Below, in pieces: positions 2,558 through 5,407 of a stretch of DNA of 64,000 nucleotides (position 1 is the stretch's first letter; every line of letters begins with the position of its first letter). This DNA comes from Shigella phage Sf21. The notes below the pieces were generated by a model, which was given only the letters and a program-made list of their open reading frames with translations, ran no database searches and had not been told where the DNA came from. The position numbers and the translations under genes were made by a program. The stretch lies in the sequence record MF327007; one strand, 5' to 3'.

Positions 2558-3031
2558 TTATTTGATTTGTTTAGCAGACCAAATGCGGTCTTTAATAATT
2601 TTTTGGATGTCTTCAACATATTCAAGAGAGTGAACATGTGGGTTATCTTTGAAACTATAAGCACGAGCTAGCTTTTGGCCTTCAGTTTTGATTATCAAAA
2701 GTTCTTTAAGAATTGCTTCATACCTAGAGATAATTCCTTTAGCAATATTTTTTTCTTGTGCTGCTTTAGGATCAGCCTTAGGAGCAGGTTTACCTGAAGC
2801 CTTTGCAAAAGCAGCTCCAGTAGCAACTAAACTTTTCCAAGCCATACTAACTGCATTCCCTGTAAATCCTTCGGCTTTCATATCACGAGCAAATTGGAAT
2901 CGTGATTCATCGGAAGCATCTTTATAGGAATATTTACCCGCGGCAATGGCAGCTTTTGCAACAGCTTGAATTTCAGTGCTAGATGCTTCATTTAACACCG
3001 CTTCATTTAAAAATTGAGCATATGATTTCAT
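2558..3031 (-). CDS. Lys/Ala-rich protein with internal-protein-like N-terminus (candidate packaged protein)
   Basis: 157 aa; N-terminus MKSYAQFLNE resembles T4 internal-protein capsid targeting sequence; TATAAATA late promoter 37 nt upstream; flanked by near-identical hairpins. Confidence 0.5.
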   Translation of the reverse strand: MKSYAQFLNEAVLNEASSTEIQAVAKAAIAAGKYSYKDASDESRFQFARDMKAEGFTGNAVSMAWKSLVATGAAFAKASGKPAPKADPKAAQEKNIAKGIISRYEAILKELLIIKTEGQKLARAYSFKDNPHVHSLEYVEDIQKIIKDRIWSAKQIK

Positions 3032-3067
3032 CTTATTTCCTGTTTTAATTCGTGGTTTTAATATACT

Positions 3068-3075
3068 TATTTATA
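3068..3075 (-). promoter_or_regulatory. T4 late promoter core TATAAATA
   Basis: exact TATAAATA on minus strand 37 nt upstream of ATG of 2558..3031. Confidence 0.6.
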
Positions 3076-3082
3076 CTAAAAA

Positions 3083-3106
3083 GCCCCAACCTTTCGGTCG
3101 GGGCTA
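3083..3106 (-). terminator. intrinsic terminator hairpin with U-run (near-identical copy of 2529-2552)
   Basis: minus strand AGCCCCGACCGAAAGGTTGGGGCTTTTTAG immediately upstream of late promoter. Confidence 0.65.
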
Positions 3107-3109
3107 AGC

Positions 3110-3414
3110 CTTGCGGCAACCTTGTCGGGGTTCCACCTGCTAAGGCAAGTGTTTGTACGAAACGCCGGGATTCGAACCCGGTTATTAAGCAGTTGACGCT
3201 ACTCAATATTTTTAAAAGGCCATATCTCGACCATATCCGAACGTTCCGTCAAAAACGCTACTCGGCTTACGGCAAAGATATTTCCTCGAATCGATAATTC
3301 GGTGCGCCGTTTCTGCTGTGATGTAAGAGGGCATCAATAAACGCAAAGATTATTAACGCAATTCCTTACTCAGGGAACATCAGTCCGACGACTTACCGGT
3401 AGCGACCCGGTTTC
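3110..3414 (-). ncRNA. candidate small stable RNA region with tRNA-like T-arm (unassigned)
   Basis: ~300 bp without a credible ORF next to the tRNA cluster; minus strand carries CCGGG-TTCGAAT-CCCGG at 3166-3182 with a possible 7-bp acceptor pairing, but no standard D or anticodon arm. Confidence 0.25.
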
Positions 3415-3765
3415 TTAATATTCTTTTAAAGCATCAATATGTTCACGGCGTTTACGCCATAAATCAATTGCTTCATACGCGGATTCAGCATTTCGAATTG
3501 GACGGCATTTATATAAAGATTTGTGATTTTGATATTGCGTAGATAACGGAATTTTATCTAAAAGGTCTTTACGTTCAAAGTATTCGTAACCATCTAAGCC
3601 AAATGAACGATTTTTGAGAAATTGCCAATGACCAAATTCGTTTTGAATATAAATATAATCCGCGTGTTGATAAAGTAAATTAATTTCACGAAATGAGATA
3701 TGTTTTTCATATTCATTGAAGTAAAATGTTAAATCATGAACTACTAAATAAACATTACTTTTCAT
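3415..3765 (-). CDS. hypothetical protein
   Basis: 116-aa ORF; SD GAGGAAAAT before ATG at 3763-3765, immediately downstream of tRNA-Arg. Confidence 0.5.
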   Translation of the reverse strand: MKSNVYLVVHDLTFYFNEYEKHISFREINLLYQHADYIYIQNEFGHWQFLKNRSFGLDGYEYFERKDLLDKIPLSTQYQNHKSLYKCRPIRNAESAYEAIDLWRKRREHIDALKEY

Positions 3766-3783
3766 ATTTTCCTCACTTATAAT

Positions 3784-3859
3784 TGGTCGAGGCAGTAGGG
3801 ATCGAACCTACGACCCAGGACTTAGAAGGTCCTTGCTCTTCCTTCTGAGCTATGCCCCG
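3784..3859 (-). tRNA. tRNA-Arg (anticodon UCU)
   Basis: 76-nt cloverleaf read on minus strand; anticodon loop CUUCUAA; T-arm GTAGG-TTCGATC-CCTAC; CCA encoded. Confidence 0.85.
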
Positions 3860-3863
3860 TAAT

Positions 3864-3939
3864 TGGGGTGACCGATGGGAGTCGAACCCATGACTACGAG
3901 AATCACAATCTCGAGTTCTACCAACTGAACTACGGCCAC
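3864..3939 (-). tRNA. tRNA-His (anticodon GUG), no encoded G-1
   Basis: 76 nt; anticodon loop UUGUGAU identical to E. coli tRNA-His loop; discriminator C73; base at -1 is U not G. Confidence 0.7.
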
Positions 3940-4053
3940 ATTAATACCTACTCCAACAATCAAGATGTCTTCACACGAAATTAAGAGAAGAGTGATCAGT
4001 TCAACCCCTATAATCGCGTCAAGTAGATATTAATGTGACAGTTGTCACAAATT

Positions 4054-4128
4054 TGGCGGACGTGATAGGATTCGAACCTATAACCAATCGCTTAACAGGC
4101 GATCGCTCTGCCATTGAGCTACACATCC
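4054..4128 (-). tRNA. tRNA-Asn (anticodon GUU)
   Basis: 75 nt; anticodon stem ATCGC/GCGAT, loop CUGUUAA; T-arm ATAGG-TTCGAAT-CCTAT; CCA encoded. Confidence 0.8.
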
Positions 4129-4132
4129 AAAT

Positions 4133-4219
4133 TGGTGGGGAGTGGTGGAGTCGAACCACCCGAGTCGCAATGACAATGAATTTACAGTCCACACCGCTAC
4201 CTCTACGGGATAACTCCCC
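4133..4219 (-). tRNA. tRNA-Tyr (anticodon GUA), class II with long variable arm
   Basis: 87 nt; anticodon loop CUGUAAA with G-U containing stem; T-arm GGTGG-TTCGACT-CCACC; CCA encoded. Confidence 0.7.
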
Positions 4220-4232
4220 CTAATTCTTAATT

Positions 4233-4307
4233 TGGTGGCCCTGGGTGGAATTGAACCACCATCTGGCGATTATGAGTCGCTTGCTTGAACCTTCCAGCTA
4301 CAGGGCC
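4233..4307 (-). tRNA. tRNA with CAU anticodon (T4 tRNA-Ile-like, or Met)
   Basis: 75 nt; perfect 7-bp acceptor stem GGCCCTG/CAGGGCC; anticodon loop CUCAUAA; CCA encoded. Confidence 0.75.
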
Positions 4308-4308
4308 T

Positions 4309-4384
4309 TGGTGCTGATTGACGGAATCGAACCGCCGACCTTCTCATTACAAGTGAGTTGCTCTACCTACTGAGCTAAATCAGC
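4309..4384 (-). tRNA. tRNA-Thr (anticodon UGU)
   Basis: 76 nt; anticodon loop CUUGUAA; D-arm GCTC-AGTAGGTA-GAGC; CCA encoded. Confidence 0.85.
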
Positions 4385-4389
4385 AAAAC

Positions 4390-4479
4390 TGGCGGAGGCG
4401 ATAGGATTTGAACCTATGAGTCGCCGGAGCGACTGCCGGTTTTCAAGACCGGTGCATTAAACCACTCTGCCACGCCTCC
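4390..4479 (-). tRNA. tRNA-Ser (anticodon UGA), class II
   Basis: 90 nt; anticodon stem CCGGT/ACCGG, loop CUUGAAA; long variable arm; CCA encoded. Confidence 0.85.
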
Positions 4480-4481
4480 AG

Positions 4482-4555
4482 TCTCCGCGGCAGGATTTGA
4501 ACCTACGACATTCTGCTCCCAAAGCAGACGCTCTACCAAACTGAGCTACACGGAG
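4482..4555 (-). tRNA. tRNA-Pro (anticodon UGG)
   Basis: anticodon stem TCTGC/GCAGA, loop UUUGGGA; T-loop TTCAAAT; CCA not encoded. Confidence 0.8.
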
Positions 4556-4565
4556 TAAATTAAAT

Positions 4566-4639
<74 letters not shown>

Positions 4640-4644
4640 AAATT

Positions 4645-4731
4645 TGGTGCGAGAAGTGGGACTCGAACCCACAAGGAAATCATTCCGCAGCATTTTAAGT
4701 GCTGTGCCTTTACCAATTTGACCATTCTCGC
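4645..4731 (-). tRNA. tRNA-Leu (anticodon UAA), class II
   Basis: 87 nt; anticodon stem CAGCA/TGCTG, loop CUUAAAA; long variable arm; CCA encoded. Confidence 0.85.
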
Positions 4732-4732
4732 G

Positions 4733-4805
4733 CTGGGAATAAAGGACTCGAACCTTTGCATCTAGCAGTCAAAGTGCTATGCCTTACCAACTTGGCTAAT
4801 TCCCA
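4733..4805 (-). tRNA. tRNA-Gln (anticodon UUG)
   Basis: 73 nt; anticodon stem TAGCA/TGCTA, loop CUUUGAC; CCA not encoded; abuts tRNA-Leu. Confidence 0.85.
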
Positions 4806-4891
4806 ATTATTAACAAAGGCTCTCAAACAAGAACCCTTGATGATAGAGGGTATTAATCAGTGCGGTATGAGTTAATAATAACAAATAATTC

Positions 4892-5407
4892 TTAAAGCAA
4901 ATTAAACATTTTAACGGTCGGCAAAACAATTTCTTCTTCTATATAAGAGTATTTAACACTCTCAACTACACGCAAAAAATCATAATCATAATACTCAGAA
5001 GCATTACCTAAAATATTAATAAGTCCTTCAAGCACTTTATTACCATTCACAAAGAATAAGTCAAATACGCGTTCTTCGTCTTCTTCGGATTTATTACCAA
5101 GGTCAACTTCTATATCAAAGACCTTTTTAATGAATTCTGGATAAAGTTGTTCTGAGAACAGTCCTTCAACCAAGTATTCATAAATAAAAAGCGATTGCTC
5201 GCTGAACAAGCCATTACCACAATAACGTTCAGCTTTAGTACTAGAATGTCTACTTTTAAACTTCTTTAAAAGATATTGAAATTGTAAGATTTCATGCTCT
5301 TCTACGCCAAACAGTGTTTTAGTTTTATAGTTGTCACCATCATTTTCCCAGGTAGTGACATCAATTACGTAACCCTGTGGAATTGTAGTACCTAAACAAA
5401 TATTCAT
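4892..5407 (-). CDS. hypothetical early protein
   Basis: 171-aa ORF, first of four translationally coupled (ATGA-overlap) minus-strand ORFs. Confidence 0.55.
   Translation of the reverse strand: MNICLGTTIPQGYVIDVTTWENDGDNYKTKTLFGVEEHEILQFQYLLKKFKSRHSSTKAERYCGNGLFSEQSLFIYEYLVEGLFSEQLYPEFIKKVFDIEVDLGNKSEEDEERVFDLFFVNGNKVLEGLINILGNASEYYDYDFLRVVESVKYSYIEEEIVLPTVKMFNLL

Follow-up and report, generated by a model that had tools for sequence, protein, structure and literature searches.

[quoted passage not shown] An earlier note, drawn from the letters of this DNA, had regarded the three genes as insertions into an otherwise canonical T4 cluster and, from their common GUN anticodons, as possible anti-defence cargo. 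Here, we analyze the cluster within the window, the whole stretch of 64,000 nucleotides under study, and compare it with related phages, with the host and with published work on systems that attack tRNA.

Results

Gene content of the tRNA cluster

Eleven tRNA genes were identified in the cluster by ARAGORN, all on the minus strand, in the transcription order Gln-Leu-Gly-Pro-Ser-Thr-CAU-tRNA-Tyr(GUA)-Asn(GUU)-His(GUG)-Arg(UCU). The cluster and its immediate surroundings contain the following features, with the source of each call in brackets.

4732..4805, minus strand: tRNA-Gln (ARAGORN)
4309..4805, minus strand: conserved part of the cluster, with the Thr, Ser, Pro, Gly, Leu and Gln tRNA genes (96% identity to T4)
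4233..4307, minus strand: CAU-anticodon tRNA, ileX-like (Ile2 type), non-T4 allele (ARAGORN)
4133..4219, minus strand: tRNA-Tyr (GUA), class II, with a long variable arm, A73 and an encoded CCA (ARAGORN)
4054..4128, minus strand: tRNA-Asn (GUU), with G73 and an encoded CCA (ARAGORN, Rfam)
4034..4049, minus strand: small hairpin GUGACA-ACUG-UCAC, directly 3′ of tRNA-Asn
3940..4036, minus strand: structured RNA element, the unannotated leader of tRNA-His (fold, covariation, covariance model)
3864..3939, minus strand: tRNA-His (GUG), with C73 and an encoded CCA (ARAGORN, Rfam)
3784..3859, minus strand: tRNA-Arg (UCU), non-T4 allele (ARAGORN)
3416..4287, minus strand: variable block, unalignable to T4 (blastn against the T4 locus)
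3415..3765, minus strand: ORF of 116 aa between tRNA-Arg and rnaD, not in T4 (phrog_3355, E = 9e-52)
3156..3419, minus strand: T4 species 1 and 2 stable RNAs, rnaC at about 3156-3294 and rnaD at about 3301-3419

The anticodon loops of the three additional tRNAs read CUGUAAA (Tyr), CUGUUAA (Asn) and UUGUGAU (His), and the ARAGORN run confirms both the genes and the anticodons that the earlier note had assigned to them. All three genes encode CCA and share the orientation of the other eight tRNAs. The Rfam tRNA model scores tRNA-Asn at 74.1 bits and tRNA-His at 65.1 bits. For tRNA-Tyr, the best Rfam match is the tRNA-Sec model at 30.9 bits, which lies below threshold, and some GenBank records tag the gene as tRNA-OTHER or pseudo; the annotation of the relative fFiEco06 gives it a tRNAscan-SE score of 51.2. 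The main E. coli identity elements are A73 and the long variable arm for tRNA-Tyr, G73 and the GUU anticodon for tRNA-Asn, and the G-1:C73 pair for tRNA-His. In the window genes, A73 and the long arm of tRNA-Tyr, G73 of tRNA-Asn and C73 of tRNA-His are present, and position -1 of tRNA-His is U. An identical tRNA-Tyr gene in phage T6 is expressed and active (PMC13096335). From their context, we infer that the three tRNAs are transcribed within a polycistronic minus-strand precursor and rely on host enzymes for processing and on host synthetases for charging.

The remaining eight genes had been described as the canonical T4 tRNAs in T4 order. This is true by anticodon, but tRNA-Arg and the CAU tRNA are identical to their T4 counterparts at only 50/76 and 47/75 positions, respectively, and are other alleles. 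In both its anticodon arm and its acceptor stem (C4-G69, C5-G68), the CAU tRNA is similar to E. coli ileX, which makes the name 'Ile-CAU' a reasonable one. The ORFs at 3415-3765, 4892-5407 and 2558-3031 match only PHROG families of unknown function, and none has a Pfam match. A structured stretch of 114 nt between the Asn and His genes, which the earlier note does not mention, is described below. The small hairpin at 4034..4049 is found in STP4-a as well.

A variable middle block without segB

In T4, the cluster runs Gln-Leu-Gly-Pro-Ser-Thr-Ile-[segB]-Arg-rnaD-rnaC. A blastn comparison with T4 aligns positions 4288-4911 of the window at 96% identity and, at 97.7%, positions 3073-3415, which comprise rnaD, rnaC and the terminator. 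The intervening 872 bp (3416-4287) show no alignment to the 845 bp that T4 has there. This block contains the ORF, tRNA-Arg, tRNA-His, the leader, tRNA-Asn, tRNA-Tyr and the CAU tRNA, and its T4 counterpart is Arg-segB-Ile. An unalignable block that also carries non-T4 Arg and CAU alleles argues for an allelic replacement and against the three separate insertions into a T4-type cluster that had been proposed. Nor did the genes displace the small stable RNAs of T4 as a cassette, another suggestion of the earlier note: rnaC and rnaD, whose coordinates were transferred from the Aplg8 annotation, are kept at 3156-3419 with 97.7% identity to T4, and the gene that occupies the slot in T4 is segB.

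No SegB homologue was detected by tblastn in the 64-kb window. The phages T2L, RB1 and RB3 also have no segB and possess both tRNA-Tyr and tRNA-Asn, and the preferred cleavage site of SegB is a 27-bp sequence inside their tRNA-Asn gene (Brok-Volchanskaya et al. 2008, PMC2330249). [quoted passage not shown] The window tRNA-Asn contains a SegB-type motif, GATTCGAAC, at 4069-4077 (+), which fits RAWTSGAAC. This motif, together with the lack of a SegB homologue, indicates that the window probably carries the homing-recipient, segB-free (T2L/RB3-type) allele. The features of that allele are all found here, namely T4-like flanks, Tyr-Asn right after the CAU tRNA and no segB, and the Asn-Tyr-CAU block is 97% identical to that of RB3.

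Distribution among related phages

The window belongs to a Tequatrovirus, and its positions 3000-5000 are 99.8% identical to Escherichia phage 107. At least 80% of this region is present in 257 phage records, with the tRNAs annotated there. The Asn-Tyr-CAU block occurs in 384 records, and the spacer with tRNA-His, at an identity of at least 95%, in about 196 (for example wV7, Aplg8, Sf22 and phage 107); T4-type segB is found at full length in 126 records and with any match in 183, and all of these counts include RefSeq/GenBank duplicates. By the numbers for the Asn-Tyr-CAU block and segB, it is T4 that represents the minority, endonuclease-bearing form, and to speak of 'extra tRNAs' is T4-centered wording. 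The trio is already known, with annotations in hundreds of genomes, and its Tyr-Asn arrangement was mapped in 2008.

The content of the slot varies between relatives. RB3, whose sequence was deposited for the 2008 SegB paper, and RB14 have Tyr and Asn in the same slot, and fFiEco06 has Tyr and Asn without His. In T6, tRNA-Tyr adjoins segB, and Pro, Ser, Asn and His are missing; in KAW1E185, another GIY-YIG gene replaces tRNA-Pro. [quoted passage not shown] Lys-Asn ... (Asp)-Met-Gln-[spacer]-His. In these four sister genera, Tyr, Asn and His lie among many non-GUN tRNAs, and their companions in the clusters include Lys, Glu, Asp, Met, Gln, Trp and Phe. The trio looks like a subset of, or an import from, a larger repertoire of the whole family, and its assembly looks to have taken at least two steps, with Tyr and Asn first and the spacer and His later.

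Codon and amino-acid demand

Demand was estimated from 70 ORFs of the window (19,431 codons, mostly of late structural genes) against a host reference of only 65 annotated E. coli K-12 genes (15,207 codons). On this basis Tyr is the most enriched amino acid (4.23% in the phage, 2.42% in the host, 1.75x) and Asn the second most enriched (5.76% and 3.84%, 1.50x), and His is the most depleted (1.36% and 2.34%, 0.58x). The eight highest phage-to-host codon ratios belong to AGA, GGA, ATA, TCA, AAT, ACA, TAT and TTA, with AAT at 2.79x (5th of 61 codons) and TAT at 2.76x (7th of 61), and every one of the eight is read by a tRNA of the cluster. An enrichment of 1.2-1.3x is also seen for Phe, Asp, Ile and Lys, yet no tRNA with a GAA, GUC or UUU anticodon is present. 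Demand is a good explanation for Tyr and Asn and no explanation for His. The earlier note had preferred anti-defence cargo to codon-usage helpers and had named a full codon-usage explanation as grounds for giving up its proposal; such an explanation fits tRNA-Tyr and tRNA-Asn, where the preference loses its footing, and fails for tRNA-His.

tRNA-Tyr and defence systems that cut it

The window tRNA-Tyr is identical to that of T6 at 87/87 positions. Its identity is about 96% to Vequintavirus and about 86% to phages of Felixounavirus size (Felix-O1-size), and it matches T5 tRNA-Tyr at 75/88 positions, with the same variable and T arms. Only 58/87 positions are shared with E. coli tyrT. The gene belongs to a phage-type lineage that is common to unrelated coliphages.

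Upon infection, the Septu system EcB88 (PtuAB) cuts the variable arm of tRNA-Tyr at C48/A49 (Chihara et al. 2026, PMC13096335). T4, which is without tRNA-Tyr, cannot escape Septu EcB88, T6 is intermediate and T2 is resistant. Over-expression of T6 tRNA-Tyr rescues T6 and weakens Septu EcB88 immunity, deletion of the T6 tRNA region sensitizes the phage to it, and T6 escapers have amplified tRNA-Tyr and segB (PMC13096335). The phage tRNA-Tyr is itself cut by PtuAB, and the effect is therefore one of dosage or decoy (PMC13096335). The same dosage conclusion was reached for T5 tRNA-Tyr against retron-Eco7 (Azam et al. 2024, PMC11555353). By analogy with T6 and T5, an anti-defence role for the window tRNA-Tyr would be correct, and the GUA anticodon would play no part in its mechanism. 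As a description of the whole trio, anti-defence cargo is only partly upheld: a gene identical to the window tRNA-Tyr counters Septu, the case for tRNA-Asn is plausible only, and for tRNA-His the literature searched yielded no nuclease.

tRNA-Asn and PARIS

The AriB effector of PARIS has tRNA-Asn(GUU) as a secondary target, which it cuts after U36-A-A-U39-C40, and a U39A change abolishes AriB cleavage of tRNA-Lys (PMC12409363). The window tRNA-Asn, which is identical to EcS1 tRNA-Asn at 65/77 positions, has G39 where the host has U39, a difference that disrupts the U36-A-A-U39 motif; it reads U36-A-A-G39, the same as T5 tRNA-Asn, and the host reads UAAU. PARIS escape by T5, and by T4-type phages, needs tRNA-Lys (PMC12409363). 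ARAGORN finds no tRNA-Lys encoded in the window. That tRNA-Asn might serve as a buffer against PARIS AriB is at most plausible.

The GUN anticodons and colicin E5

The earlier note had pointed out that the trio makes up three of the four substrate tRNAs of colicin E5. [quoted passage not shown] To this extent the observation is sound, but tRNA-Asp, the second-best E5 substrate, was not found by ARAGORN in the 64-kb window, and the anticodon loops of all three tRNAs are those of E. coli tyrT/V, asnT and hisR, with only stem position 39 of tRNA-Asn differing. In the literature searched, there was also no GUN-specific phage-defence nuclease; the specificity of DARNA, ApeA and AriB is either different or broad.

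Phage tRNA variants that are insensitive to nucleases have been modeled as mutants of the anticodon loop (PMC10264068). Evasion of E5 through such loop changes was considered and rejected, the loops being equal to those of the host and YGUN being kept. Because YGUN is intact and the loops are identical to those of the host, E5 would be expected to cut the phage tRNAs too. They are predicted to be E5 substrates, not escapees, and only mass action could help. A relation between coliphage tRNAs and the targets of colicin E5 had been suggested before (van den Berg et al. 2023, PMC10264068).

tRNA-His and its structured leader RNA

E. coli hisR has an identity-determining G at position -1. In every phage examined, comprising five Tevenvirinae genera including the window, and T5, position -1 of tRNA-His is U. 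Mature T5 tRNA-His probably carries U-1, and the T5 record annotates the tRNA as 78 nt with U-1 included. The same GenBank record states that T5 tRNA-His can be converted into an efficient suppressor. The window tRNA-His is identical to that of Klebsiella phage KpV477 at 75/76 positions. Together with its structured leader it appears to form a separate module, the nearest copies of which are in Klebsiella and Enterobacter T4-like phages. Codon demand does not explain its selective value, and no defence nuclease or system aimed at tRNA-His was found in the literature searched. Its codon demand is the lowest, G-1 is absent and no nuclease is known to target it, which makes tRNA-His the real puzzle of this locus.

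The spacer between the Asn and His genes measures 114 nt, of which 97 nt (3940-4036, minus strand) form the structured element. On the tRNA strand, the spacer folds at -32.7 kcal/mol (z = -4.36). The leader adopts a three-way junction with a closing helix of 13-14 bp and internal hairpins, and the closing helix ends at nucleotide -2 of tRNA-His. Homologues of the spacer were found in 354 phage records that fall into six groups, Tequatrovirus, Jiaodavirus, Karamvirus, Kagamiyamavirus, Gelderlandvirus and one Vequintavirinae phage. In Gelderlandvirus the spacer is followed by a truncated tRNA-His, and in the Vequintavirinae phage it sits between tRNA-Gly and tRNA-Gln.

Covariation was assessed in an alignment of seven leader sequences, using slid pairing partners as the control. 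Nine pairs are altered on both sides, and paired cells amount to 95%, compared with 35-50% in the slid controls. A covariance model of the leader scores 108.8 bits on the minus strand; on the plus strand it finds nothing in the window at E<=1, and four related loci reach at most 20 bits on that strand. No Rfam family matches the leader, and the covariance model detects no copy in T4, T6 or T5 and no second copy. Searches with blastn-short and the covariance model reveal no homology to T5 RNA III, RNA I or T4 rnaC/rnaD.

Other readings of the spacer were considered. A degenerate tRNA, such as a lost tRNA-Asp, was rejected on blank ARAGORN and Rfam results and on the fold, in which a closing helix of 14 bp leads into a three-way junction. 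A promoter was rejected as well, as no sigma-70-like site lies on the minus strand and the overall count of such sites is what shuffling predicts. A palindrome at the DNA level is disfavored by the score of 108.8 bits on the tRNA strand and the lack of a plus-strand match at E<=1.

T5 RNA III is a stable RNA of unexplained function. We tentatively raise the possibility that the 97-nt leader belongs to an undescribed family of small structured phage RNAs that travel within tRNA clusters, and is maybe a functional counterpart of T5 RNA III. As a speculation, the leader could steer 5′ processing such that the extra 5′ nucleotide is kept; alternatively, it may act as a stable RNA on its own. If the leader RNA is stable and functional, it would offer a handle on a decades-old puzzle, the small stable RNAs in the tRNA clusters of T4 and T5.

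Discussion

On the evidence above, the Tyr-Asn-(leader RNA)-His arrangement is probably the segB-free allele of a variable middle block in the Tequatrovirus tRNA cluster, an allele that is widespread and was described previously. The Arg-segB-Ile arrangement of T4 would be the alternative allele, spread by SegB cutting inside tRNA-Asn. As composition suggests, the additional supply of tRNA would meet the over-use of Tyr and Asn, and the same tRNAs may buffer translation against tRNA-depleting defences through dosage, an effect shown with the identical T6 tRNA-Tyr against Septu PtuAB; a similar buffering by tRNA-Asn against PARIS AriB is plausible. tRNA-His would have arrived as a separate module, together with its structured leader RNA. 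Neither supply nor defence buffering is demonstrated as a benefit for tRNA-His, because its amino acid is the least used (0.58x) and the gene is without G-1.

A purely nutritional role, in which the trio supplies codons and amino acids to an AT-rich, Tyr- and Asn-rich proteome and has no part in defence, explains a good deal. Enrichment among amino acids is highest for Tyr and Asn, their codons AAT and TAT are interleaved with those of the classical T4 tRNAs, and the anticodon loops are identical to those of the host. We nevertheless consider this role unlikely as the full account, given that the identical T6 tRNA-Tyr counters Septu and that T6 becomes more sensitive when its tRNA region is deleted (PMC13096335), that no amino acid is more depleted than His (0.58x), and that a phage with a 1.2-1.3x enrichment of Phe, Asp, Ile and Lys has no GAA-, GUC- or UUU-anticodon tRNAs. 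If instead the genes were neutral hitch-hikers in a hot-spot of recombination and homing, their content would merely reflect endonuclease-driven shuffling, for which there are several signs: segB is flanked by Ile and Arg in T4 and by Tyr and Arg in T6, a GIY-YIG gene stands in for tRNA-Pro in KAW1E185, T6 is without Pro and Ser, the Tyr and CAU-tRNA genes of Tequatrovirus and Vequintavirus share about 96% identity, and SegB cuts within most tRNA genes (PMC2330249). Neutrality is very improbable when cloverleaves, identity elements and CCA ends are intact over hundreds of genomes, the helices of the leader RNA are kept by compensatory changes, with purifying selection seen on the stems, and a function is shown for tRNA-Tyr (PMC13096335).

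The least probable of these alternatives is selection of the trio as a set that makes up for GUN tRNAs lost to an anticodon nuclease of the colicin E5 type. Three of the four isoacceptors are present, and the chance that three random draws from the 12 unserved amino acids all fall among these four is 4/220 = 0.018, a figure calculated post hoc; the idea has also been put forward before (van den Berg et al. 2023, PMC10264068), and it would give tRNA-His an otherwise missing explanation. However, intact YGUN motifs in host-identical loops confer no resistance, Asp is absent, colicin E5 is a bacteriocin with no GUN-specific phage-defence counterpart in the literature searched, and the known tRNA-Tyr nuclease cuts the variable arm. 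The history of the genes also speaks against a set, as they fall into at least two modules, with Tyr and Asn alone in RB3, RB14 and fFiEco06 and His apart with its leader, and the sister genera hold the three among many non-GUN tRNAs. Moreover, Tyr and Asn are expected from composition alone.

In the corrected picture, demand and defence together explain Tyr and Asn, and the T4 allele is the minority. The anti-defence role of this exact tRNA-Tyr was already published in 2026, and to this our finding adds little. What remains of value is the unexplained tRNA-His module with its conserved, covarying and unannotated leader RNA.

Comparison with known tRNA clusters

The window resembles T4 in its flanks and the six tRNAs from Thr to Gln (96%) and in rnaC/rnaD (97.7%), and differs from it in the middle block, which is unalignable, in the Arg and Ile alleles and in segB, which T4 possesses. 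T2L, RB1 and RB3 (GenBank AJ884578) and RB14 share with the window the order Gln-Leu-Gly-Pro-Ser-Thr-CAU-Tyr-Asn-...-Arg-rnaD-rnaC and have no segB, whereas the window adds about 190 nt of leader and tRNA-His module in the gap between Asn and Arg, as well as the ORF between Arg and rnaD. T6 has the identical tRNA-Tyr (87/87) in the same place after the CAU tRNA, but there segB adjoins Tyr, the Ile and Arg alleles are of the T4 type, and Asn, His, Pro and Ser are missing. The window has no segB, and amplification in cis of the T6 style is therefore not expected.

T5 resembles the window in encoding phage copies of targeted isoacceptors, and the T5 set counters retron-Eco7, PARIS and PrrC (PMC11555353, PMC12409363). 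T5 differs in having about 24 tRNAs, among them the tRNA-Lys that the window does not carry. The Asn tRNAs of T5 and the window both read UAAG, as opposed to UAAU in the host. The likeness extends to tRNA-His, which in both has U at position -1 and directly follows a structured RNA of about 100 nt. In T5 this is the 106-nt RNA III, which lies directly 5′ of tRNA-His and has a similar long closing stem. RNA III is without sequence similarity to the leader of the window, and the two are alike in position and architecture only.

A conserved RNA upstream of tRNA-His

The interval between tRNA-Asn and tRNA-His contains a conserved and unannotated structured RNA, here termed the leader element, whose copies in Sf21 and in the loci of compared phages (L-handles) are as follows.

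Leader element and its copies
Window 3940-4036, minus strand: leader element, ~97 nt, directly 5′ of tRNA-His
L010:2077-2173: copy
L011:2077-2177: copy
L015:1038-1133: copy
L016:1205-1300: copy
L017:481-577: copy
L018:1206-1298: copy

The element folds into a 14-bp closing helix with internal hairpins, contains nine covarying pairs and gives a strand-specific covariance-model signal. An Rfam search with it returned no matching family. It occurs in 354 phage records, one of which belongs to the Vequintavirinae, where the element does not adjoin tRNA-His.

Alleles and probable exchange of the neighboring tRNA genes

Neither tRNA-Arg(UCU) (window 3784-3859; 50/76 identity) nor the CAU tRNA (4233-4307; 47/75) is the T4 gene. 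In its acceptor stem and anticodon arm the CAU tRNA is similar to E. coli ileX; despite this likeness, it is labeled tRNA-Met by ARAGORN and in most GenBank records. Across window 4133-4307, Tequatrovirus (Straboviridae) and the rV5/FV3-like Vequintavirus phages (e.g., FV3, NC_019517) share ~96% identity in tRNA-Tyr and in part of the CAU tRNA. This level of identity suggests that tRNA genes have recently passed between coliphage families that are not related.

The anticodon stem of tRNA-Tyr carries a G30-U40 wobble in both Sf21 and T6 (position 40, window 4180-4181 region), whereas phage 107 and Aplg8 have G-C. The D stem contains a C-C mismatch, as judged by eye. Both features are consistent with the low score that tRNA-Tyr receives from the covariance model and with the instability reported for the T6 molecule.

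Insertions and flanking genes

In some close relatives, such as Escherichia phage KAW1E185 (L014:1785-2435), a GIY-YIG homing endonuclease gene replaces tRNA-Pro between tRNA-Gly and tRNA-Ser. The cluster has here another site of endonuclease insertion, distinct from the first. Three ORFs flank the cluster at positions where T4 has no counterpart.

Flanking ORFs
3415-3765, minus strand
4892-5407, minus strand
2558-3031, minus strand

They match phrog_3355, phrog_2290 and phrog_2280, PHROG families of unknown function, and contain no Pfam domains.

Comparison with T5 and E. coli

All phage tRNA-His genes examined keep C73 and carry U at position -1 (window 3940; T5, L008:6284; L010, L011, L012:2077), whereas E. 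coli hisR encodes the canonical G-1. T5 and the T4-like phages share U-1, and in both a structured RNA of ~100 nt, RNA III in T5, lies directly upstream of tRNA-His.
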